A stretch of DNA of 64,000 bases, from the NCBI GenBank assembly GCA_964450515.1, contig CAYVEI010000001.1:12885-76884 (forward strand), written 5' to 3'. The notes beneath the pieces were generated by a model. It worked only from the letters and a program-made list of their open reading frames with translations. It did no database searches and had not been told where the DNA came from. This document shows, piece after piece, positions 12,868-62,993 of the stretch (within the stretch, counting starts at the first letter, position 1; each line of letters starts with the position of its first letter). The position numbers and the translations under genes are program-made. Origin of the DNA: an uncultured Terrimonas sp. (GTDB lineage: Bacteria; Bacteroidota; Bacteroidia; Chitinophagales; Chitinophagaceae).

Positions 12868-12887
12868 GCTTTGCTTTTTTTCATTAA

Positions 12888-53756: not shown

Positions 53757-56192
53757 TTAGCGTTTCAGCCCTCCCAGCAATCCACCGATCAATTGTAATG
53801 CCTTTTCTATTACCTGCTCATCACCCACAGGTATTTTTAAATAGGTTTGCCCGGAAACCTTATCCTTTTCCGTTAGCTTGCTAACCAGTTGCTTTGTGCT
53901 TTCGGGGTTACTGAGCGATTTTGCCAGTTGTTCAAAAAAGGAAACGCCTGTTTGAATGATCTGGTCTTCGGCAGATAGGGTTTTTATCTTTTCCTGTTCC
54001 GGCTCACGCACGCTGTCTGTTATTTCACGGGCAAACAATTCCATTTGCGCGGGTGCGGTGGTCATTTCTTTCTCCGCATTTCTTTCCGCATTTTCTGACG
54101 CAGATTGTTCCGTTGCGCCGGGTATGCCGCCGGTAACCGATTCTACCGATTGCATAAACCGGTTGAACTTTTGTCCGCCCAGGAAAATCGTATTATCGCC
54201 ATCATCTAATATACCTGCGGCCACTCCTTTTTTAAATTTCAACACTTCCAGCATCCTTTCTTCAATGGTTCCTTTGGCCACGAGATTAATAACGCTTACG
54301 TTTCTCTTTTGCCCCAAACGATAGATGCGGCCAATGCGTTGCTCTAATATGGCCGGGTTCCAGGGAATATCCAGGTTGATTATACAGGAAGCGGCTTGCA
54401 GGTTTAGTCCTACCCCGCCGGCATCGGTTGAAAGAAACACCCTGCAATCAGGATCATTATTGAAATGTGTAAACAAAGCCTGCCTGTTTTTACCGGGTAC
54501 GCCCCCGTGAAGGTACTGATGCCTGATCCCTTTGTTCGTAAGCATTTGCGACACCAGCCTCGTCATCCGCTCCCATTGGCTGAATACTACTACTTTTTCT
54601 TCCTTCATGTCAATGATCTCATCTAATATATTTTCCAGCTCGTCTAACTTGGTTTGATAATTGGTTTCCTGGTCAATGATATAGGTGCTGTTGCAAACCA
54701 TACGCATCATGTTCAGGTTGTTCAGCAGCCGCTGCCTGTCTTCTTCCTTCAGGAATTTCATTCTTTTCCACTTATGCACCAATTTGGCCACGATCTCCCT
54801 GAACCCGTCATGCATTTGCATTTGCTCGTCAGTTATGGGGATAAGCAGGTTTTTATCCATGCGGGAAGGCAATTCTTTCAGCACTTCTTTTTTGGTGCGC
54901 CGCAGCATTACCTCTTTTAGCAGTCCGCCAATTTTATTAAGCTCTTTATATCCGGTAACTTTTCCGGTATCATCTGTTATCTGGTGCTGGTGTAAAAAAT
55001 GGTGAAGCGATCCCAGTAAATAAGGATTAACAATTTGCATCAGGGAATACAGCTCTTCAATATTATTTTCTACGGGCGTGCCGGTAAGCACCAAAGCATA
55101 AGGTGTTTTAATGCGTTTGATCCTGGCGGAGGTTTTTGCCCGCCAGTTCTTTATACGTTGCGCTTCATCCAATATCAGCATGTCGGCCTGCATTTCGTTC
55201 AGGTAGCCATAATCGTTAGCCGCCACATTATAGCTTACAATAAAATAATCGTACGCCTCGCTGGCGTATAGCTTCATCCGCGTGATAAGGTTCCCTTCTA
55301 CCACGCATATTTTTTTATTCTCTGTGAATCTTTCAATTTCGCTTTTCCATTGGTATTTCAATGATGTGGGGCAAACGATAATGGTTTTGGCGATCTTACA
55401 GTCGCGCCGCATTATTTCCGCGGCAGAGATGGCCTGCAGGGTTTTGCCCAAACCCATATCGTCGGCAAGTATACAACGGCCGGCGGCTACGCTGAATAAT
55501 ACACCCGTTTGCTGGTAAGGGAACAGCTTTACTTTACTTACACCATTCAATAATCGTATACCTTCTTTTTGTACCAGTTGCCTGCGTTGCATAAAGCCCC
55601 GTTCCTGCAGTATGAATTCCAGCGCGTCGTCATAACAGCGGAAGCCGTTGTTCAACTTTGAAGCTTTTACAAGAAACTGTTCGATATGCATTAACGCTTC
55701 CGGTTTCAACATACCTTTCTCATTAAAGTAGGGCCCGGCGAGCAGGGTAAATTTCTTCTTTTCCTCCGTACCTATCCGGAGCCTGACACTTCTTTGCCCG
55801 CGGTAATTAAGATATACTGAAGTATAGGCCGGAGCATACGCCTGCTGCAATGCCCGGCACAGAGCGGGCTTAGCATTTATTTTTAGCAGCACTGCTTCTA
55901 TATGCTTGCAGGTGCCCAACTGGTTGGTCTTAAAATCGGGACAGGTGCAAAAGTTCAGGCTGATGCCGGCGCTGCGCAAAGCTACCTTGTATGTGCTTTT
56001 AGATTGAGCGCTGTATACGTTGTAATCTCCGTACACCAGGCCTTCATCTAATTTTTTTATGGTAAATTTTTCTTCCTCTGCTATTTGTTTCCGCAAGGCA
56101 GCCTGCCATTCCTCATTGGTCAGGCTTTCGGGTTTACGGGTATGGGATATTCTTGCTTTTGCAGGTTTCTTTTTTGGGGCAGTTTTTCGCAT
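53757..56192 (-). CDS. SNF2-family helicase with an N-terminal SWIM zinc finger
   Basis: SWIM CTCPDFKTNQLGTCKHIEAV. SNF2 motif I LADDMGLGKT and motif II DEAQRIKN. Helicase-C QRIGRIYRLGQ. Confidence 0.85.
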   Translation of the reverse strand: MRKTAPKKKPAKARISHTRKPESLTNEEWQAALRKQIAEEEKFTIKKLDEGLVYGDYNVYSAQSKSTYKVALRSAGISLNFCTCPDFKTNQLGTCKHIEAVLLKINAKPALCRALQQAYAPAYTSVYLNYRGQRSVRLRIGTEEKKKFTLLAGPYFNEKGMLKPEALMHIEQFLVKASKLNNGFRCYDDALEFILQERGFMQRRQLVQKEGIRLLNGVSKVKLFPYQQTGVLFSVAAGRCILADDMGLGKTLQAISAAEIMRRDCKIAKTIIVCPTSLKYQWKSEIERFTENKKICVVEGNLITRMKLYASEAYDYFIVSYNVAANDYGYLNEMQADMLILDEAQRIKNWRAKTSARIKRIKTPYALVLTGTPVENNIEELYSLMQIVNPYLLGSLHHFLHQHQITDDTGKVTGYKELNKIGGLLKEVMLRRTKKEVLKELPSRMDKNLLIPITDEQMQMHDGFREIVAKLVHKWKRMKFLKEEDRQRLLNNLNMMRMVCNSTYIIDQETNYQTKLDELENILDEIIDMKEEKVVVFSQWERMTRLVSQMLTNKGIRHQYLHGGVPGKNRQALFTHFNNDPDCRVFLSTDAGGVGLNLQAASCIINLDIPWNPAILEQRIGRIYRLGQKRNVSVINLVAKGTIEERMLEVLKFKKGVAAGILDDGDNTIFLGGQKFNRFMQSVESVTGGIPGATEQSASENAERNAEKEMTTAPAQMELFAREITDSVREPEQEKIKTLSAEDQIIQTGVSFFEQLAKSLSNPESTKQLVSKLTEKDKVSGQTYLKIPVGDEQVIEKALQLIGGLLGGLKR

Positions 56193-56386: not shown

Positions 56387-56506
56387 ATGATAAACAGCAT
56401 CACATGCATCAGACAGCGCAAAAAATTAAAACATCAGATTGGTTTAGCCATCGAGGCTATGATACCAGTTGCGGGGCATGTAATGCTGATGAATAAGTTC
56501 AAATAA
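56387..56506 (+). CDS. possible 39-aa small ORF (leader-peptide-like); coding status uncertain
   Basis: ATG at 56387, MINSITCIRQRKKLKHQIGLAIEAMIPVAGHVMLMNKFK. Its last third overlaps segment 1 of an alternative-pairing structure, and a terminator follows 20 nt later. Confidence 0.25.
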   Translation: MINSITCIRQRKKLKHQIGLAIEAMIPVAGHVMLMNKFK

Positions 56507-56555
56507 CGGATTCGATCAAATATACGCCCCGCAAGAGATTGCGGGGTTTTTGTTT
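56469..56555 (+). promoter_or_regulatory. attenuator-like arrangement: TTGCGGGGC (56469-56477) can pair with GCCCCGCAA (56526-56534), which otherwise forms the terminator stem
   Basis: Three mutually exclusive segments read directly from the sequence. Confidence 0.3.
56527..56555 (+). terminator. rho-independent terminator
   Basis: CCCCGCAA gaga TTGCGGGG followed by TTTTTGTTT. Confidence 0.65.
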
Positions 56556-56775
56556 CAGATGAATATTATATTTATAAAATAAAAATGCTGAAGACTTTAG
56601 AACATAAACAATTTACGATTCCAATGCGGAATATACAGCTATCATTATCTGTACGATATGGGTATGTGCAGGCCAACAACAGCAATGTGCCTGCAGGCCA
56701 TGAAGAGGACAGCAAACATACGCGACCGTGGTATAACTATACATAACCTGTATTGAACAGGCATAATGAAAAGGG

Positions 56776-56808
56776 ACCCGGTCGCAGCAAACGACCGGGT
56801 TTTTTGTT
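56776..56808 (+). terminator. rho-independent terminator
   Basis: 9-bp stem ACCCGGTCG / CGACCGGGT with a 7-nt loop, followed by TTTTTGTTG. Confidence 0.65.
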
Positions 56809-56863
56809 GCTGCATATAAAAATAGCGGGTATAGGATCATATCCTTTCTCCATAAACAACAAT

Positions 56864-56936
56864 GATCTGTTCGTCTAATGGTTCAGGACACAAGGTTTTC
56901 ATTCTTGAAATACGGGTTCAACTCCCGTACAGATTA
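56864..56936 (+). tRNA. tRNA-Glu (anticodon TTC), AT-rich, G1-U72 wobble
   Basis: Hand-folded cloverleaf. Acceptor GATCTGT/ACAGATT, D arm GTCT-AATGGTTCA-GGAC, anticodon arm CAAGG-TTTTCAT-TCTTG, T arm ACGGG-TTCAACT-CCCGT. No encoded CCA. Confidence 0.8.
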
Positions 56937-56939
56937 CAA

Positions 56940-57011
56940 GGTTCGTTGGTGTAACGGCTAACATCACAGATTGTCGATCTGTTGCTATGGGTTCGATTCC
57001 CGTACGAACCG
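56940..57011 (+). tRNA. tRNA-Asp (anticodon GTC)
   Basis: Acceptor GGTTCGT/ACGAACC, D arm GTGT-AACGGCTA-ACAT, anticodon arm ACAGA-TTGTCGA-TCTGT, T arm ATGGG-TTCGATT-CCCGT. It starts 3 nt after the previous tRNA. Confidence 0.8.
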
Positions 57012-57019
57012 CTGAAGCT

Positions 57020-57092
57020 TATTGAGTGGTGTAATGGTTCAGCATGTCAGTTTTTGACACTGGCGGTTTTGGTTCGAATCCAAACTCAATAA
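57020..57092 (+). tRNA. tRNA-Gln (anticodon TTG), U1-A72
   Basis: Acceptor TATTGAG/CTCAATA, anticodon arm TCAGT-TTTTGAC-ACTGG, T arm TTTGG-TTCGAAT-CCAAA. Confidence 0.8.
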
Positions 57093-57097
57093 CGCAT

Positions 57098-57171
57098 GTT
57101 GACTTCAGCTTATGCGCTAAAGCGCCACACTGTGAATGTGGAGAATTAGCGTTGGAATCTCGAAGTCAACC
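57098..57171 (+). tRNA. tRNA-His-like (anticodon GTG) with a degenerate T arm; possibly a pseudo-tRNA
   Basis: 8-bp-capable acceptor GTTGACTT/AAGTCAAC, a possible G-1:C73 pair as in tRNA-His. D arm GCTT-ATGCGCTA-AAGC and a perfect anticodon arm CCACA-CTGTGAA-TGTGG. The T loop is TTGGAAT (G instead of C56) and the T stem TAGCG/CTCGA has 2 mismatches. Confidence 0.55.
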
Positions 57172-57197
57172 AATACTGCCTGGTGTAAAGGCAATAG

Positions 57198-57271
57198 TGG
57201 CCCGTAGCTCAATTGGCAAGAGTATCCGGCTTTTAACCGGAGGGTTCAGGGTTCGAATCCCTGCGGACCAA
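57198..57271 (+). tRNA. tRNA-Lys (anticodon TTT), U1-A72 with a C4-A69 mismatch
   Basis: Acceptor TGGCCCG/CGGACCA, D arm GCTC-AATTGGCAA-GAGT, anticodon arm TCCGG-CTTTTAA-CCGGA, T arm CAGGG-TTCGAAT-CCCTG. Confidence 0.75.
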
Positions 57272-57275
57272 CGAT

Positions 57276-57347
57276 GGACGAATAGCTCCAATGGCAGAGC
57301 ATTGGTTTGAAGCACCAACTGTGCTGGTTCGAATCCGGCTTCGTCCA
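57276..57347 (+). tRNA. tRNA-Phe (anticodon GAA)
   Basis: Acceptor GGACGAA/TTCGTCC, D arm GCTC-CAATGGCA-GAGC, anticodon arm TTGGT-TTGAAGC-ACCAA, T arm GCTGG-TTCGAAT-CCGGC. Confidence 0.85.
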
Positions 57348-57384
57348 CAGATAAGAAGATTTTAAATACCTGTTAAGGAAGAAA

Positions 57385-57870
57385 ATGGAACAACAGCAAA
57401 AATGGAGGAAGTTATCCGGCGAAAGCGTTCAACAGCCGATTGAAGATGAGATAAGAACTGTGATCATAAGAGAAAAAGAGATGGGACATGCTTTAAAAAT
57501 CTGCATTGGCACCGACAGCCAGGTAAAGGGACGGGAAACTGAATTTGCGACTGTTATTGTGTTCATCCGGAAAGGGAAAGGAGGGTTCATGTATATACAC
57601 AATGAGATCACTACACAAAAGATGAGCATCAAACAACGGATGCTGACTGAGGTAGGTAAGAGTATTGAAGTGGCTTATGCCCTGTGCAATATTTTTTCGC
57701 GGTACAGTGTGGATATGGAAGTGCATGCCGACATCAACACTAACCCCAGCTTTAAAAGTAATGCTGCTTTGAAGGAAGCAATGGGTTATATTATGGGAAT
57801 AGGATTTGCCTTTAAAGCAAAACCGGAGGCCTTTGCAAGCTCAAGCTGCGCGAATAAGGTGGTACAGTAG
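57385..57870 (+). CDS. YkuK/DUF458-family RNase H-fold protein
   Basis: 161 aa. The signature IGTDSQ is followed by a TxFATVIV strand (CIGTDSQVKGRETEFATVIVFIRKGKGG). The C-terminal ...ASSSCANKVVQ resembles the YkuK C-terminus as I remember it. It starts 37 nt after tRNA-Phe. Confidence 0.65.
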   Translation: MEQQQKWRKLSGESVQQPIEDEIRTVIIREKEMGHALKICIGTDSQVKGRETEFATVIVFIRKGKGGFMYIHNEITTQKMSIKQRMLTEVGKSIEVAYALCNIFSRYSVDMEVHADINTNPSFKSNAALKEAMGYIMGIGFAFKAKPEAFASSSCANKVVQ

Positions 57871-57875
57871 CAATT

Positions 57876-57908
57876 ATGGTTGCCAATCTTCCAAAGGTTG
57901 GCAACCAT
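57876..57908. repeat. palindromic hairpin element, copy 1 (ATGGTTGCCAA-tcttccaaagg-TTGGCAACCAT)
   Basis: 11-bp perfect stem, directly after the YkuK stop, with flanks ATT...TTT shared with copy 2. Confidence 0.8.
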
Positions 57909-58021
57909 TTCCAAATAGCAGAAAGTAAGCCATCAGGATTCGAAGGTAGCGTGAACAAAAAGCGTTCTTTAAAATATAATAAGTTCCTTCTTAATGGGAA
58001 GGCTTAAAAAGCTTGCTTAAC

Positions 58022-58175
58022 GGCAAGATGGGGAACCTGCGTGTTAGCAGCAAACCGGATGTGTGTTTTAAAAGCACTATAGTGCGGCGGTAGTAACCTG
58101 CCGTATGCTGTTGCAATAACATGTATTTCCCTCTATAACCTGTGGGTCAGGGGTTCGAGTCCCTTTCCTGCCTCA
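58022..58175 (+). ncRNA. long tRNA-like element X: canonical T arm and 3' acceptor strand, with a candidate 5' acceptor partner about 140 nt upstream
   Basis: T arm AGGGG-TTCGAGT-CCCTT (58149-58165). The 3' strand TCCTGCC (58166-58172) is followed by TCA. The best 5' partner is GGCAAGA (58022-28; 6 of 7 pairs). The interior has several short hairpins, e.g. CGGCGG-tagtaac-CCTGCCG at 58085-58103. The fold is not resolved by hand. Confidence 0.4.
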
Positions 58176-58238
58176 GGCGGGATAGCTCAGCGGTTAGAGC
58201 AACAGGCAATTGCGGGTTCGAATCCCGCTCCCGCCTCA
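58176..58238 (+). ncRNA. tRNA-like element Y lacking the anticodon arm (acceptor + D arm + T arm only)
   Basis: Acceptor GGCGGGA/TCCCGCC is perfect. D arm GCTC-AGCGGTTA-GAGC and T arm GCGGG-TTCGAAT-CCCGC. Only 11 nt (AACAGGCAATT, 58201-58211) join the D and T arms where a tRNA has about 22-23 nt. A TCA tail follows. Confidence 0.6.
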
Positions 58239-58302
58239 GGCGGGATAGTTCAATGGTAGAACACAACACTTCGGATGTTGAGTAAAGAAGTACACTGCTT
58301 CT
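58239..58302 (+). ncRNA. tRNA-like element Z: 5' acceptor strand, D arm, anticodon-like arm and a non-canonical T-like hairpin, but no 3' acceptor strand
   Basis: GGCGGGA, then TA, then GTTC-AATGGTA-GAAC, then CAACA-CTTCGGA-TGTTG (nominal anticodon TCG; the loop can close as a C(UUCG)G tetraloop). Next comes AGAAG-TACACTG-CTTCT, followed by CAAAAAA instead of TCCCGCC. Confidence 0.45.
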
Positions 58303-58604: not shown

Positions 58605-59705
58605 ATGAAAAATGTAAAAGTAAACGCCTACCAGGTTGGATTGGTTTTTAAAAATGGCGTGTATCAGCGGATGCTGAACGAAGGAAGCTACTGGTTCTGG
58701 AGCAATGAAACCGTGCAGTTATTTGATATAACCAAGCCATTCAATGCACCAGTGGAGCTGAATTTATTATTAAAGGATGCTGCACTTGCTGAGGCATTAC
58801 TTGTACTGGACGTAAAAGACAATGAAATTGCTTTACAATATAAGAACGGTTTGCTGGAAGCAGTATTCGGTGCAGGTCGTTATGCCTTTTGGAAAGGCGC
58901 TGTTGAATACAAATTCATAAACGCAGATATTGGAAAGATTGAGATCACTGAACCTGTAGAACGAACGGTATTGTTACATCGCCTGGTTGCCCCATTCGTT
59001 CGTAGCGTAAGTGTGGAAAGCTTTGAAAAAGCGGTATTGTTTATTGACGGAAAATTTATGCAGGTTTTGCAAAGTGGCGTATACTATTGGTGGAAGAATG
59101 CAATTGCCGTACATGTTGGTAAAATAGATACCCGTCAACAGCAACTGGAGATCAATGGCCAGGAAATTCTGACCAAAGATAAAGCGGCATTGCGTATCAA
59201 CGCATGGGCGCAATACCAGGTAACTGATATTGAAAAAGCCCTGCTGCAAAACAAAGAATACGACAGGCAATTGTATGTGGCATTTCAACTGGCATTGCGG
59301 GAATATGTAGCCGGCTTTGGATTTGATGAATTGCTGGAGAAAAAAGAAGCCATTACTCCTTTCATTTTGCAAAGTGTACAGAAAAACGCTGAAGCATTGG
59401 GTATAGTGGTGAATGGTTTCGGCATCCGTGATATCATATTGCCGGGCGATGTAAAGGAGATCATGAACCAGGTATTGATCGCTGAAAAGAAAGCGCAGGC
59501 AAACACCATCATGCGCAGGGAAGAAACTGCCAGCACCCGAAGCTTGCTGAACACTGCCAGGCTGATGGAAGAAAACGCAATGTTGTGGAAACTGAAGGAA
59601 ATGGAATACGTGGAAAAGATCGCAGAAAAGATTAGCAACATTAGTGTAAGTGGCAACGGTGTATTGATTGAGCAGTTGAAGGAGATTTTTGTGCCGAAGA
59701 AATAG
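58605..59705 (+). CDS. SPFH/Band-7 (slipin-like) domain protein without a TM segment
   Basis: The C-terminal half is typical SPFH (IRDIILPGDVKEIMNQVLIAEKKAQANTIMRREETAS...). The N-terminal half has three related segments (VGLVFKNGVYQRMLNEGSYWFW / IALQYKNGLLEAVFGAGRYAFW / AVLFIDGKFMQVLQSGVYYWW). I see no hydrophobic anchor. Confidence 0.75.
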   Translation: MKNVKVNAYQVGLVFKNGVYQRMLNEGSYWFWSNETVQLFDITKPFNAPVELNLLLKDAALAEALLVLDVKDNEIALQYKNGLLEAVFGAGRYAFWKGAVEYKFINADIGKIEITEPVERTVLLHRLVAPFVRSVSVESFEKAVLFIDGKFMQVLQSGVYYWWKNAIAVHVGKIDTRQQQLEINGQEILTKDKAALRINAWAQYQVTDIEKALLQNKEYDRQLYVAFQLALREYVAGFGFDELLEKKEAITPFILQSVQKNAEALGIVVNGFGIRDIILPGDVKEIMNQVLIAEKKAQANTIMRREETASTRSLLNTARLMEENAMLWKLKEMEYVEKIAEKISNISVSGNGVLIEQLKEIFVPKK

Positions 59706-59710
59706 TGATT

Positions 59711-59743
59711 ATGGTTGCCGGCCTTTGGAAGGTTGGCAGCCAT
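59711..59743. repeat. palindromic hairpin element, copy 2 (ATGGTTGCC-ggcctttggaaggtt-GGCAGCCAT)
   Basis: It matches the reverse complement of copy 1 at all but 4 positions. It lies directly after the SPFH stop. Confidence 0.8.
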
Positions 59744-59876
59744 TTATAAAAGAGTGGAAAACGGTTTTAGCCTGGCTTTTATCCATATTACAATGTCTGT
59801 TACGTTACACTCTTCATTGTTTAATAACTTTATTGAAAAACTTAGAGAGCTTAGAAACTAAAAAAATAATCATAAA

Positions 59877-60596
59877 ATGCAAAGTAGAACGATAAGTATC
59901 AAAGCAGAAACCTTTAATTATCCTACAAAAGAAGAACGGTTGAATGCAAATGAAGATTTTCCAAAACTGAAAGTCTTTGATTTTGAAGAAAAAAATGCAA
60001 TAGACCTTCATCTAAATCATAATATCGATTTAGATAGATCTTCATCATATCATAATTTGTACTGGTGGAATAATTGTTTATCTAACAGAATAGGAAAGTT
60101 ACATGAAACCTTTGTCTATGTGCATACGCATTATCATAGAGGCTTTTTAGAAGATATTACAACATGTTCTGAAATAGAAATCGCTAATAAGTTACAATTT
60201 GAATATTATGCTGAATTATTTTACTATTTCTATGTTTCGACAAGAGATATTGTTTATCAAATAGTAAACCTTTATTGCAATTGTAAAATTTTGGATCGCC
60301 AAGTTTCCTTCACTGAATTAATAAATAAGCTAAACGACTTCCCTGAAATTAAGAAATTATTGCGGGACTTTAATAATACAATAAAATCTTCTTCTGATAT
60401 AAGAAATGGTTTTGCTCATAGATTTACTCCAACGATCAAAGACTATAGAACTGATACTTCAAAAATTAATGAACGAATTTCATTGAGCTTTAAAGAAGGG
60501 GAGCATCTTTCATCTGAAGAGATCGTTACAAATATTAATTTTTCTCTAAAAGAACTTGAAATAGCAATAAGCAGCTTAAAAGAAAATATGAAATAG
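59877..60596 (+). CDS. predicted HEPN-domain protein (candidate RNase), AT-rich
   Basis: 239 aa, largely helical by composition. An R-x4-H motif RNGFAH at R176-H181 (nt 60402-60419) with the usual Asn after Arg. Two 60-nt lines counted at 25% (60001-60060) and 32% GC (60061-60120), against 65% for a line inside rtcB (61081-61140). The family cannot be assigned by eye. Confidence 0.5.
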   Translation: MQSRTISIKAETFNYPTKEERLNANEDFPKLKVFDFEEKNAIDLHLNHNIDLDRSSSYHNLYWWNNCLSNRIGKLHETFVYVHTHYHRGFLEDITTCSEIEIANKLQFEYYAELFYYFYVSTRDIVYQIVNLYCNCKILDRQVSFTELINKLNDFPEIKKLLRDFNNTIKSSSDIRNGFAHRFTPTIKDYRTDTSKINERISLSFKEGEHLSSEEIVTNINFSLKELEIAISSLKENMK

Positions 60597-60727
60597 CAAA
60601 ACATGAAAAGCGAGCCGAAACCCGAACGGAGCGTCGCAACATCAGCTCAACCGAAGTTACGGAGCTGGAATCAAAAACCTCTGTGTTCTTCCGTGTCTCC
60701 CTGCCTCCATGGTTCAAAACAAAAACA

Positions 60728-62194
60728 ATGAGCAAGTTAAAAATAACAGGAAAAGAATTAAGAGCCATCGGCTACCCCGAAAGCCGGGTGATAAGCGTGG
60801 CAATAAATGTGATGCAAAAAAATTATAAGCATCATAATAAGGAGAAAGTATTGGAACTATTAAAAAAAATACTGGAAGCGCCGGCTGCATATAAAGACGA
60901 TGGGGTACTGGCATTGATTGCAGAAAAATTGCTGCATACGCTTCACAAGGATAAGGGTGACCATACAGGAGGGGTACAGGTATCATTGCATAGTTCGGGT
61001 ATTCCATTTAATGTATTTGGCAGCGAGCATATTGAAGAAGGCGCCATGCACCAGATGTATACCGCGGCTAAGCTGCCCGTGGCCGTTGCGGGGGCTTTAA
61101 TGCCCGATGCCCACAGCGGTTACGGCTTGCCGATAGGTGGTGTGCTGGCAACACACAACGCGGTAATACCTTACGGCGTTGGCGTGGATATTGGCTGCCG
61201 CATGTGTTTGAGCGTGTTTGATATGGATCCGAAGGAGTTGCTGAAAAAGGAAAATTATTTTATAAGGGAATTAAATGAAGCCACCCTGTTTGGGAGCGGA
61301 AAGCAATTTGATCATGCTGCTGATCACGAAGTAATGGATCGCCCGGAATTCGGAGCGCTGCCCTTACTGAAAAACCTGCACGGACGGGCATGGAAACAAT
61401 TGGGATCATCCGGCTCCGGCAATCATTTTGCAGAGTTTGGCGTGGTGGAGATCAGCCAAAAAGATGAAATATTGGGCATTGACGCAGGGACCTATATAGG
61501 TTTGCTTTCGCATTCCGGCTCAAGGGCATTGGGTGCGGCTATTGCTAATCATTATACAAAGATCGCTAAACAAAAAAGACGCCTGCCGGGTGAAGCCGCT
61601 AACCTTGCCTGGCTGAACTTAGATGAAGAAGCCGGTATGGAATACTGGATATCCATGAACCTGGCAGGCGATTATGCTTCTGCCTGCCACCATATTATAC
61701 ATGCAAAGCTTGCAGGGCAACTGGGAACAAAAGCCATGAAGATGGTGGAGAACCACCACAATTTTGCCTGGAAGGAAGTGTGGGAAGGAAAGGAAGTGAT
61801 CGTTCATCGCAAAGGCGCTACACCTGCTGGCAAAAATGTATTGGGCATTATTCCCGGCAGCATGACCGCTAATGGATTTATAGTAAAAGGAAAAGGAGAG
61901 GAAGCCTCTGTGAATTCCGCATCGCATGGAGCAGGCAGGCAAATGAGCCGCAGCAAAGCGTTACAATCTGTTACCGAAAGTGCATTAAAGCAGGAGCTAA
62001 AAAAACACGGTGTAAAATTGATCGGCGGCGGACTGGATGAAGCGCCTTTTGCCTACAAGGATATTCATACTGTGATGCAAAGTCAACAGCAATTGGTAGA
62101 GGTGGTGGGAAAATTCGCACCAAAAATTGTGAAAATGGACGGCGCAAAGCATAAAATGTGGGGAAAGAAAAGAGATGAACCAACAGGTGAGTAG
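60728..62194 (+). CDS. rtcB: RNA 3'-phosphate/2',3'-cyclic phosphate ligase RtcB, with an N-terminal extension of roughly 95 aa
   Basis: RtcB metal and GMP-site motifs MPDAHSGYG, VDIGCRM, GSGNHFAEF, HSGSRALG and ENHHNFAW. I prefer the ATG at 60728 (MSKLKITGKEL...). Confidence 0.9.
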   Translation: MSKLKITGKELRAIGYPESRVISVAINVMQKNYKHHNKEKVLELLKKILEAPAAYKDDGVLALIAEKLLHTLHKDKGDHTGGVQVSLHSSGIPFNVFGSEHIEEGAMHQMYTAAKLPVAVAGALMPDAHSGYGLPIGGVLATHNAVIPYGVGVDIGCRMCLSVFDMDPKELLKKENYFIRELNEATLFGSGKQFDHAADHEVMDRPEFGALPLLKNLHGRAWKQLGSSGSGNHFAEFGVVEISQKDEILGIDAGTYIGLLSHSGSRALGAAIANHYTKIAKQKRRLPGEAANLAWLNLDEEAGMEYWISMNLAGDYASACHHIIHAKLAGQLGTKAMKMVENHHNFAWKEVWEGKEVIVHRKGATPAGKNVLGIIPGSMTANGFIVKGKGEEASVNSASHGAGRQMSRSKALQSVTESALKQELKKHGVKLIGGGLDEAPFAYKDIHTVMQSQQQLVEVVGKFAPKIVKMDGAKHKMWGKKRDEPTGE

Positions 62195-62294
62195 CTCAAA
62201 TACGGTCGGTACGCATAGCGTTAGACTGTATTTGTTTTTTAAATGGAATAACAATGCCATCTCAAATAAAACTAAATTACAGTCTCAACCAGGT

Positions 62295-62993
62295 ATGATG
62301 CGGATACTTTTAATTTTAATGGCATGCTTGTGGTATAATAACAACTGCGTGGCGCAGGCACAAAAAAGACACGTTGTAAAAGCCGGCGAATCGCCCGATG
62401 AAGTAATACCCGATGAAGCAAAATATGTACTGCCCGCATTTACAGCAGGAACGGCATTTTTAAGATCAGGCGCATCCGTAAAACAACGTTTCAATTACAA
62501 TTGCCTTTTAGATGAAATGCAGTTTTTAAATACCGGCGGCGACACCCTGGCCATTGCAGATCCCGCACTGATTAAATACATCAGCATTGACAGCCTCGTG
62601 TTTTATTACGATAAAGGATACCTGCAGCAGAAGGTACAGGTTGGCGCTTACATGCTCGCTGTAAAACAGCAAATGATCTATATCCCCGATAAAGTGGGCA
62701 CGGCCTATGGCGGCTCTTCGGGCTCTTCGGCAGTAACCACTTATTCAAGCATATACTCCAGCGACAAAGTACACCGTTTGAAAGTAGACAGGGACGTACT
62801 TTTTGAAACGGTAACCAACTGGTTTATCGGCAATTCGTACAACCGTTTTGAAAAAGCAGATAAGAAAGGGTTTTATAATATTTTCCCTTCAAAAAGAGAC
62901 GCCATAAGAAAATACATTGCAAAAAACAATACAGATTTTAATAAGGAAGCCGACCTTGAACAACTGCTGCGGTTTTGTACGGAAAAACAATAA
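62295..62993 (+). CDS. hypothetical secreted protein
   Basis: I prefer the start at MMRILLILMACLWYNNNCVAQAQ (62295). I recognise no motif. Confidence 0.45.
   Translation: MMRILLILMACLWYNNNCVAQAQKRHVVKAGESPDEVIPDEAKYVLPAFTAGTAFLRSGASVKQRFNYNCLLDEMQFLNTGGDTLAIADPALIKYISIDSLVFYYDKGYLQQKVQVGAYMLAVKQQMIYIPDKVGTAYGGSSGSSAVTTYSSIYSSDKVHRLKVDRDVLFETVTNWFIGNSYNRFEKADKKGFYNIFPSKRDAIRKYIAKNNTDFNKEADLEQLLRFCTEKQ

Follow-up and report, generated by a model that had tools for sequence, protein, structure and literature searches.

A trimmed tRNA gene array as the probable 5′ part of an RtcB-centred RNA-repair module in Chitinophagaceae

The tRNA array and the genes that follow it

The window analysed here is a stretch of 64,000 nt from an uncultured Terrimonas sp. 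(Bacteroidota; Chitinophagaceae), that is, positions 12,885 to 76,884 of the forward strand of contig CAYVEI010000001.1 (GenBank assembly GCA_964450515.1), and the element in question is an array of six tRNA genes, all on the plus strand, that occupies 484 nt at window positions 56864-57347. The array is followed on the same strand by genes for a YkuK protein, an SPFH/Band-7 protein, a HEPN protein and an RtcB RNA ligase. Comparison with related loci indicates that it is most likely a trimmed copy of a lineage-wide array, with which an RtcB-centred RNA-repair (tRNA-rescue) module in Chitinophagaceae would begin at its 5′ end. The genes are as follows, with bit scores from the Rfam tRNA model RF00005:

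56864..56936, plus strand: tRNA-Glu(UUC); 59.5 bits; G1-U72, A73, GC 0.41
56940..57011, plus strand: tRNA-Asp(GUC); 56.1 bits; G73
57020..57092, plus strand: tRNA-Gln(UUG); 59.3 bits; U1-A72, GC 0.40
57098..57171, plus strand: tRNA-His(GUG)-like gene, apparently degraded; 36.8 bits; G1-C72, C73
57172..57197, plus strand: 26-nt spacer, probable scar of a deleted tRNA-Arg(ACG) slot (by comparison with loci L108 and L022)
57198..57271, plus strand: tRNA-Lys(UUU); 65.7 bits; U1-A72, C4-A69 mismatch, A73
57276..57347, plus strand: tRNA-Phe(GAA); 60.2 bits; A73, anticodon loop TTGAAGC
57385..57870, plus strand: YkuK/DUF458 RNase-H-like protein; Pfam PF04308, E 7.9e-37
58605..59705, plus strand: SPFH/Band-7 protein; Pfam PF01145, E 1.1e-31
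59877..60596, plus strand: HEPN_Cthe2314 protein; Pfam PF18730, R-x4-H motif intact
60683..62194, plus strand: RtcB RNA ligase; Pfam PF01139, E 4.5e-79; PHROG tRNA-splicing ligase, 1e-88

An earlier note, written from the letters of the window, had described six clustered tRNA genes with intergenic gaps of 3, 8, 5, 26 and 4 nt and no encoded CCA. Both ARAGORN and RF00005 recovered this cluster (the gaps are those between the Rfam gene ends), and inspection of the sequence revealed a CCA after none of the six genes. With default settings ARAGORN called Glu-UUC (56864-56937), Asp-GUC (56940-57012), Gln-UUG (57020-57093), Lys-UUU (57198-57272) and Phe-GAA (57276-57348), and the RF00005 scores of these five genes ranged from 56.1 to 65.7 bits (E 1e-9 to 1e-12), whereas the His-like gene (57098-57171) was called as His-GUG only at 85% thresholds and scored 36.8 bits. 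That is, the scoring that the note had put forward as a check gave five solid genes (56-66 bits) and a marginal one, all six being above the gathering score of 29 bits. No canonical tRNA gene was found elsewhere in the 64-kb window with either program.

All of the stem and loop irregularities pointed out in the note are visible in the sequence, but one of them, U1-A72 in the Gln gene, is the normal state of bacterial tRNA-Gln and is no irregularity. Likewise, the description of the genes as AT-rich applies markedly to Gln and Glu (GC 0.40-0.41) but not to the other four (0.47-0.55). The elbow elements (G18G19, T54-Psi55-C56 and a 5-bp T stem) are present in Glu, Asp, Gln, Lys and Phe, whose anticodon loops are canonical; Phe carries G37, in place of the A37 usual in bacteria. 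The His-like gene has the T loop TTGGAAT, forms three of the five T-stem pairs and lacks G18G19 and C56. The consensus of the His slot in an alignment of related loci has the T loop TTCGAGT, a 4-bp T stem and a D-loop GG, all three of which the window copy has lost, and this gene is best read as a degraded copy of a well-formed family member. Thus, five of the six window members look functional, and the His-like gene looks like a decaying copy.

The RtcB and SPFH genes lie in one plus-strand cluster (58605-62194), and the start of RtcB is possibly the ATG at 60728. No plus-strand terminator-like site was found from position 56864 to the end of the RtcB gene. Because such a site is absent between the array and this point, it is plausible that the array and the YkuK-RtcB genes form a single transcription unit.

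Linkage, turnover and selection in related loci

A metagenome scan with YkuK gave at least 589 matches, and 80 related loci were taken. Their tRNA slots were counted with relaxed ARAGORN settings; a custom covariance model, which gave 495 tRNA-like matches, was not used for this census. A same-strand array was located directly 5′ of YkuK in 36 of the 43 loci with an intact upstream flank, and no tRNA gene was found outside the array in these related loci. Eighteen loci could be judged on both sides of YkuK: 16 of them carried an array, and all 16 had SPFH and/or RtcB after YkuK, whereas the two array-less loci had neither (Fisher P = 0.0065, array versus operon). The tie between the array and the downstream operon that the earlier note had proposed is therefore supported, since no locus among the 18 had an array without the repair genes.

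The array is separated from YkuK by a median of 134 nt. This spacing, the constant position of the array on the same strand 5′ of YkuK and the lack of a terminator between the two would also fit a cis-acting leader, in which the tRNA structures serve not as a tRNA pool but as RNase P 'punctuation', stability signals or sensors for the YkuK-RtcB mRNA. One or two structures would be enough for this purpose, yet there are up to 20 genes with conserved anticodons and identity bases, and the slot-specific conservation of the anticodons would be left unexplained. We consider such a leader very improbable.

Judging from gene content and order, the module appears to begin with the array and YkuK, after which some loci encode an AAA ATPase; next come a Y-RNA-like tRNA mimic and SPFH, and then variable cargo and RtcB. 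SPFH is encoded in 26 related modules, the AAA ATPase in 23 related loci and a TROVE protein in four; the SPFH-RtcB pair recurs in related loci, and the RtcB copies are 54-80% identical. Other cargo comprises paired RlaP nucleotidyltransferases, Ro60/TROVE, DinB, PcfJ and a divergent WYL regulator, and as a whole it looks like the gene repertoire of RNA-repair systems. No TROVE/Ro60 protein was found by Pfam among the scanned genes of the window.

The earlier note had also linked the array to the HEPN gene, and here the comparison pointed the other way. HEPN_Cthe2314 was present in only two of about 80 related modules, namely the window and locus L005 (a metagenome contig), which are 84% identical in YkuK, 79% in SPFH, 75% in RtcB and 47% in HEPN; at least 17 tRNA genes lie 5′ of the L005 operon, including Glu-Asp-Gln-His-Lys-Phe in the order of the window. 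Only 16 HEPN homologues were found in 5.8 billion proteins. R176 and H181 are invariant, and no tRNAs, YkuK, SPFH or RtcB were found near the other homologues, including 13 Bacteroidota loci from a genome collection. Because of these contexts, HEPN is regarded as interchangeable cargo and not as part of the module core. In another relative (L022:10645-11841) the slot after SPFH encodes a 398-aa protein without a Pfam match that has a C-terminal RHRIVH motif (a HEPN-like R-x4-H) and is followed by two RlaP nucleotidyltransferase genes. This slot seems to exchange RNase-like cargo.

Across the relatives the arrays hold 0-20 genes, with a median spacer of 7 nt and no apparent periodicity. The slots follow a common order, that is, Pro, Glu, Asp, Gly, Gln, His, Arg-ACG, Leu, Ile-UAU, Met and Ile-GAU in the first half and Val, Lys, Arg-UCU, Asn, Tyr, Ser, Ser, Cys, Phe and Trp in the second. 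The family comprises about 20 specificities, Ala and Thr being almost never present and Leu rare, and large arrays often have slots for Met, Ile, Val, Trp, Ser and Cys.

The closest relative found is a locus of an Agriterribacter sp. metagenome-assembled genome (L108; GCA_035445465.1), in which small open reading frames (ORFs) are followed by Glu-Asp-Gln-His-Arg(ACG)-Lys-Phe, YkuK, an SPFH remnant, RtcB and the same hypothetical and aldo-keto reductase genes as in the window. The protein-coding backbone of the window is 86-95% identical to that of L108, the Glu genes are 99% and the Asp, Lys and Phe genes 100% identical, and the C4-A69 mismatch of Lys is common to both loci. A second syntenic relative, L022, lacks Glu and Arg-ACG; its Asp gene is 96% identical to that of the window, with a compensatory change from U-A to C-G in the acceptor stem, and its Lys gene 85% identical, with the 4-69 pair apparently restored to C-G in the alignment. 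The Gln genes of L108 and L022 are 96% identical, whereas that of the window is 73-74% identical to these two and appears to be a replaced allele, set within an array that is 99-100% identical to that of L108. The His-like gene is 85% identical to the His gene of L108 and 80% to that of L022, whose anticodon is GCG. In a three-way alignment, the window and L022 have a short spacer between His and Lys where L108 holds Arg-ACG, and the 26-nt spacer of the window would be the scar of the deleted slot. The window array is thus a deletion-reduced mosaic, single cassettes being gained, lost, replaced or in decay inside arrays that are otherwise conserved between close relatives.

Within the slots, the mean pairwise identity is 0.59-0.88, and 97-99% of the stem cells in the alignments are canonical, with many compensatory changes; in the Gln slot, 19 of the 22 stem pairs occur as two or more canonical pair types. 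The discriminator bases follow the identity rules, with U73 in Cys, C73 in His, G73 in Asp, Asn, Ser and Trp, and A73 in Lys, Phe, Ile, Met and Val. The stem covariation, the discriminator rules and the 99-100% conservation relative to L108 together show that most members are under purifying selection, which has kept the cloverleaf and the discriminator bases.

The earlier note had held that these are not the housekeeping copies, and the membership of the arrays agrees with it: L022 has no Glu and a GCG anticodon in the His slot, L108 has an additional Arg-ACG, and other loci have anything from 0 to 20 genes. Because essential specificities differ between syntenic relatives, we infer that the array tRNAs are accessory and not the sole genomic copies. 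An ordinary housekeeping cluster that lies beside the repair operon by chance would account for the normal scores (56-66 bits) and canonical anticodon loops of five genes, and co-transcribed tRNA-mRNA operons are known in bacteria, e.g. the tufB operon of E. coli. However, sole essential copies would not be present in one syntenic relative and absent from another, the His member lacks G-1 and is defective, the array co-occurs strictly with the operon, and the divergence within the slots is strong; we find this explanation scarcely credible. The GC content of the family (0.40-0.55) and the frequent tRNA-Ile(UAU) are also atypical of bacterial housekeeping tRNAs, as are the near-absence of encoded CCA, the lack of G-1 in His, C33 in most Pro copies, G37 in half of the Phe copies and the shifts of anticodon inside a single tRNA body.

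The loss and decay of cassettes raise the question of whether the array could be the relic of a tRNA cluster acquired horizontally from a phage or another mobile element, without present function. One of the six window genes is degraded, slots have been lost repeatedly down to arrays of 0-2 genes, GC is low in some members, and tRNA-Ile(UAU) and other odd members recall phage sets. Against this, four of the six genes are 99-100% conserved while the backbone has diverged by 5-14%, stem changes are compensatory, and slot order and adjacency to YkuK are conserved in at least 40 loci. Moreover, a search of 2.9 million viral contigs gave a single distant match to the module, compared with the at least 589 metagenome matches. 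Comparison of the array with phage genomes by blastn gave generic tRNA similarity only (72-74%), and the YkuK genes in plasmid records were all distant ones from Bacillus. The window module is not flanked by integrase or phage genes; its neighbours, the SNF2 and aldo-keto reductase genes, keep their synteny in relatives, where the module likewise occupies a syntenic site, and the module was not found on phage or plasmid records. The Chitinophagaceae module therefore appears to be cellular and chromosomal, and a functionless relic is improbable.

Possible role of the array

We consider it fairly probable that the array provides an accessory pool of tRNAs that is expressed along with the repair operon and would replace cleaved housekeeping tRNAs while RtcB, together with SPFH and the mimic RNA, reseals them. 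The array would be transcribed with the operon, or just ahead of it, from a regulated promoter, and the CCA-less precursors would be cut apart by RNase P and 3′ nucleases, with YkuK possibly acting on their 3′ ends, before a CCA-adding enzyme finishes the tRNAs. Among the array tRNAs of the window and loci L005-L101, CCA is encoded in only 14 of 412, although about 90% have C at position 74. Where toxins or stress RNases have cut housekeeping tRNAs in the anticodon loop, the additional isodecoders, mainly of the split NAN boxes, Phe and Arg, would then supplement these tRNAs or stand in for them, and the cut tRNAs would be re-ligated by RtcB, aided by SPFH and the tRNA mimic.

A role of YkuK in tRNA metabolism is suggested by its phage homologues, which are 31-39% identical and come from large phages. 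In an IMG/VR contig (L104, 1296-2034) the gene is located between two tRNA genes inside a tRNA cluster, in Citrobacter phage Ci1 (L105, 5947-7517) it lies directly 5′ of a CCA-adding enzyme gene with tRNAs near, and in Pseudomonas phage Astolliot it is 1.2 kb from tRNA genes. Ro60-like DUF2828/DUF7788 proteins adjoin YkuK in Vibrio phages and are encoded nearby in the Citrobacter phage. These contexts would link YkuK to tRNA metabolism independently of RtcB. YkuK has more than 8000 homologues, the top 120 of which are at least 80% identical, the named ones being from Chitinophagaceae metagenome-assembled genomes. Its AlphaFold model (mean predicted local distance difference test score, 65.5) is of mediocre quality and agrees with no more than a generic RNase-H-like fold, in line with the Pfam label; it indicates no substrate.

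The six anticodons of the window had been interpreted in the earlier note as matching the classes attacked by known anticodon nucleases, and the retention of slots in the family supports this in part. Phe is the most retained slot (0.84 of the arrays), followed by Lys and His (0.70 each), Asn (0.59), Gln (0.54), Glu (0.49), Arg-ACG (0.46) and Asp (0.38), with most other slots at 0.14-0.38; that is, NAN-box slots, Phe and Arg-ACG are kept most often, and all six window slots are within the eight most retained. The set as such needs to be seen with reserve, the six being the remnant, after deletions, of about 20 specificities that also include Met, Ile, Val, Ser, Trp, Pro, Cys and Gly. Colicin E5, colicin D, PrrC and zymocin recognise modified wobble bases, and the retention is compatible with pressure from nucleases of this kind. 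If the bias does reflect nuclease pressure, the content of the arrays would be a record of the tRNAs attacked in soil Bacteroidota.

The same slots could also be retained for a different reason, namely that, as the earlier note had considered possible, the array tRNAs form a decoy or nuclease-resistant pool, which would soak up or escape nucleases more than decode, with loops that mimic the targets and with bodies and positions 37, 32 and 38 that vary. Such a role agrees with the most retained slots (Phe, Lys, His, Asn, Gln, Glu, Arg-ACG and Asp) and their NAN-box bias, with the variable flanks of the anticodon (Glu 37, which is A, U or G; C37 in some His; G37 in Phe; Gln 32 and 38), with the His genes without G-1, the charging of which is doubtful, with non-canonical features in Pro and Glu, and with the presence in the same module of a tRNA mimic that has no anticodon arm. 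Moreover, a sponge role has been proposed for an array of Anabaena (PMC8421152) and competitive inhibition for the YrlA RNA (PMC7790460). However, the discriminators fit the aminoacylation identity rules in nearly all slots, which would be needless in a pure decoy, large arrays frequently include Met, Ile, Val, Trp, Ser and Cys slots, and the match to 'known targets' was made post hoc with a loosely defined target class. A predominantly decoy function is, in our opinion, unlikely.

A number of observations do weigh against an accessory pool that decodes and is shaped by nucleases. The higher rank of the NAN-box slots over the rest is significant in a one-sided Mann-Whitney test (P = 0.008-0.02), in which shared ancestry is uncorrected, and the retention would fit effects of codon usage, or a preference for A/U-rich anticodons, equally well. 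Some family members look like poor decoders: Pro copies mostly have C33, about half of the Phe copies have G37, and several Glu and His copies have a pyrimidine at 37. The anticodon has also drifted within one tRNA body, from GUG to GCG in His, from Ile-GAU to Val-GAC, from ACG to UCG in Arg and from UGG to UCG in Pro (examples of anticodon shifts and variant arms are L022:7720-7791, L027:847-920, L062:5610-5681, L072:202-272, L031:80-152 and L023:974-1049). An encoded G-1 is the main identity element of bacterial HisRS; the base at -1 of the window His-like gene is t, hence no G-1 is encoded, and in the array His genes of other loci this base is t, c or a in 28 of 29, the exception with g being L096. 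These genes pair G1-C72 and have C73 (e.g. window 57098-57171, L025:1235-1306), and array tRNA-His would need the addition of a 5′ G or may lack charging. As for expression, the first tRNA of L022 begins 7 nt past a terminator, with no visible promoter, and as for YkuK, Foldseek gave only weak matches to RNase H1 (E 7e-3) and none at E 0.001 or below. Separately, one Asp body was seen in which the anticodon arm is replaced by a palindromic hairpin.

The accessory pool can be extended to a 'tRNA-rescue island' made up of the array, YkuK, the mimic, SPFH and RtcB, whose tRNA content would be shaped by an arms race with anticodon-loop nucleases and in which YkuK would be a new tRNA-end processing or repair nuclease that also serves phage tRNA clusters and CCA-adding enzymes. 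This extension is tentative and we would not give it even odds; it would explain the retention of NAN-box, Phe and Arg-ACG slots, the replacement of single cassettes and the odd contexts of the anticodon loops.

The tRNA mimic, known systems and the upstream region

Further features lie between the YkuK and SPFH genes and at the 3′ end of the cluster:

57868..57915, plus strand: 48-nt palindromic element, copy 1, starting at the YkuK stop codon
58141..58302, plus strand: Y-RNA-like tRNA mimic; tandem modules 58141-58204 and 58210-58262, then an anticodon-arm-like hairpin
59703-59750: 48-nt palindromic element, copy 2, starting at the SPFH stop codon; 77% identical to copy 1
62175..62993, plus strand: hypothetical protein (272 aa); Chitinophagaceae homologues only

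In each module of the mimic the order is permuted: the T arm comes first, then the acceptor stem, which a 3-nt loop closes, and then the D arm. The modules match positions 23-85 only of the Rfam YrlA model (RF02553), at 34.9 and 39.1 bits, below the gathering score of 69. RF00005 gave 50.8 and 31.3 bits (58176-58302), the match at 50.8 bits running across both modules as a tRNA without an anticodon arm. A pattern scan revealed the mimic in about 25-30 related loci, mostly 370-560 nt 5′ of SPFH where the locus has SPFH (about 400 nt in the window). In an alignment of 32 modules, 12 of the 16 pairs show compensatory changes, and the z-score of the fold is -2.9. The two 48-nt elements bracket the segment with the mimic RNA and SPFH that is deleted in L108.

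A computational prediction of an RtcB/Band-7 repair system with a 'band-7-associated tRNA' was reportedly made by Burroughs and Aravind in 2016. The mimic may be that RNA. In a preprint, RtcB and Band-7 are described with a tRNA-like RNA, RlaP and Ro60/TROVE being interchangeable (bioRxiv 10.1101/312249). The window likewise has RtcB, SPFH and a tRNA-like RNA, and its relatives swap in RlaP and Ro60/TROVE, but the RNA in these loci is not a full tRNA: it is a permuted, loop-closed module of YrlA type, which occurs singly or as two tandem copies. An RtcB operon with a tRNA-mimicking RNA, rsr-yrlBA-rtcBA, is known from Salmonella, where it is activated upon tRNA cleavage (Chen et al. 2014; Hughes et al. 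2020, PMC7790460). The mimic of the window matches the core of YrlA in Rfam, that is, the T arm, acceptor and D arm, although at scores below gathering, and it occurs without Ro60, RtcA and RtcR, with SPFH in the place of Ro60; the Salmonella operon, for its part, has no tRNA array.

Accessory arrays comparable to that of the window are the L-arrays. Translational stress induces the L-array of Anabaena sp. PCC 7120 (trn operon) along with rtcB, and this array aids survival (Santamaria-Gomez et al. 2021, PMC8421152). L-arrays are supernumerary, undergo frequent insertions, deletions and duplications and have some defective members; rtcB neighbours some of those in cyanobacteria, and Bacteroidetes are listed among the L-array phyla, the neighbourhoods analysed being cyanobacterial only (PMC8421152). 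The tRNA genes of the window and its relatives are similarly tightly spaced, on the same strand and non-periodic, with insertions, deletions and defective members. In contrast, almost all members of a large Bacteroidota clade have the array joined head-to-tail to a YkuK/SPFH/RtcB operon. No HNH homing endonuclease was seen, the window copy has only six genes, and the site is syntenic and chromosomal, whereas that of Anabaena is on a megaplasmid.

In phages, Pnkp/Rnl1 of T4 counter PrrC, and the tRNAs of T5 counter PARIS and retron nucleases. Phage tRNAs and RNA ligases have been interpreted as a counter to anticodon cleavage in a survey of jumbo phages (PMC7824862). Phage tRNA clusters share with the module the additional tRNAs and the RNA ligase, and YkuK homologues occur near such clusters, a CCA-adding enzyme and Ro60-like proteins. 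The module described here, in contrast, appears to be cellular and chromosomal and would protect the host's own translation.

In the literature searched, to which the RtcB/Band-7 prediction of 2016 did not belong, so that an earlier description is possible, we found no account of the near-obligate fusion of array, YkuK and SPFH/RtcB across Chitinophagaceae, nor, within the same limit, of slots that keep their order while cassettes turn over, of the bias in retention or of the link between YkuK and tRNA clusters. The purpose of accessory tRNA arrays is known from essentially one experimental system, that of Anabaena, and bacterial RtcB operons are still without well-defined substrates. Their physical fusion across the clade suggests that spare tRNAs and tRNA ligation are directly linked in function. 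It also takes in the mimic, the SPFH scaffold and an uncharacterised RNase-H-like protein, and YkuK, the mimic RNA and the retained slots are the candidates that it offers.

The 272-aa ORF at the 3′ end has homologues of about 230 aa in Agriterribacter and Ginsengibacter, and its real start is probably about 40 codons inward. It is located 3′ of RtcB in L108 and absent in L022, and its membership of the operon is uncertain. It had no match in Pfam, NCBIfam, PHROG, PADLOC or PDB; the PADLOC-DB models also gave no match for YkuK, SPFH, HEPN and RtcB, and NCBIfam, PHROGs and a PDB sequence search gave nothing useful for YkuK and HEPN.

Two features precede the array:

56585..56808, plus strand: conserved small ORF with its own terminator; 53 aa (56585-56746), hairpin and T run at 56776-56805
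56807..56863, plus strand: array leader; candidate promoter TTGCTG, 17 nt, TATAGG (56807-56835)

The 53-aa ORF, which ends in RPWYNYT and is positioned immediately 5′ of the array, has no family match. It is kept in at least eight loci at 33-91% amino acid identity, tblastn having detected the peptide 5′ of the arrays of L108 and L109 (91%), L022 (83%) and L081, L035, L032, L044 and L025 (33-44%). A 39-aa ORF (56388-56547) with a terminator of its own precedes it. A gene for a SWIM-zinc-finger SNF2 helicase (53757-56192, minus strand) is divergent from the array region; it has generic matches to DpdE, ZorD and BREX helicase components, is truncated in L022 and shows no sign of belonging to the module.

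In the leader, the palindrome AGGATCATATCCT (56833-56845) overlaps the candidate -10 box, 20-30 nt before the first tRNA. The leader is near-identical in L108, where the palindrome AGGATCATATCCT is still perfect despite one substitution, and is missing from L022 along with tRNA-Glu. The palindrome is a possible operator of the candidate promoter. Many larger arrays (L023, L029, L037, L044, L062, L068, L069 and others) have a different conserved element about 30-110 nt before the first tRNA, which is composed of GATGCAGAAGGAGGAAA, a hairpin TCCCCGTGAGATGCAGCGGGGA with a T run and AAGTTCTTTGA, with GATGCAG as a direct repeat (two copies). This element could be a regulatory leader.

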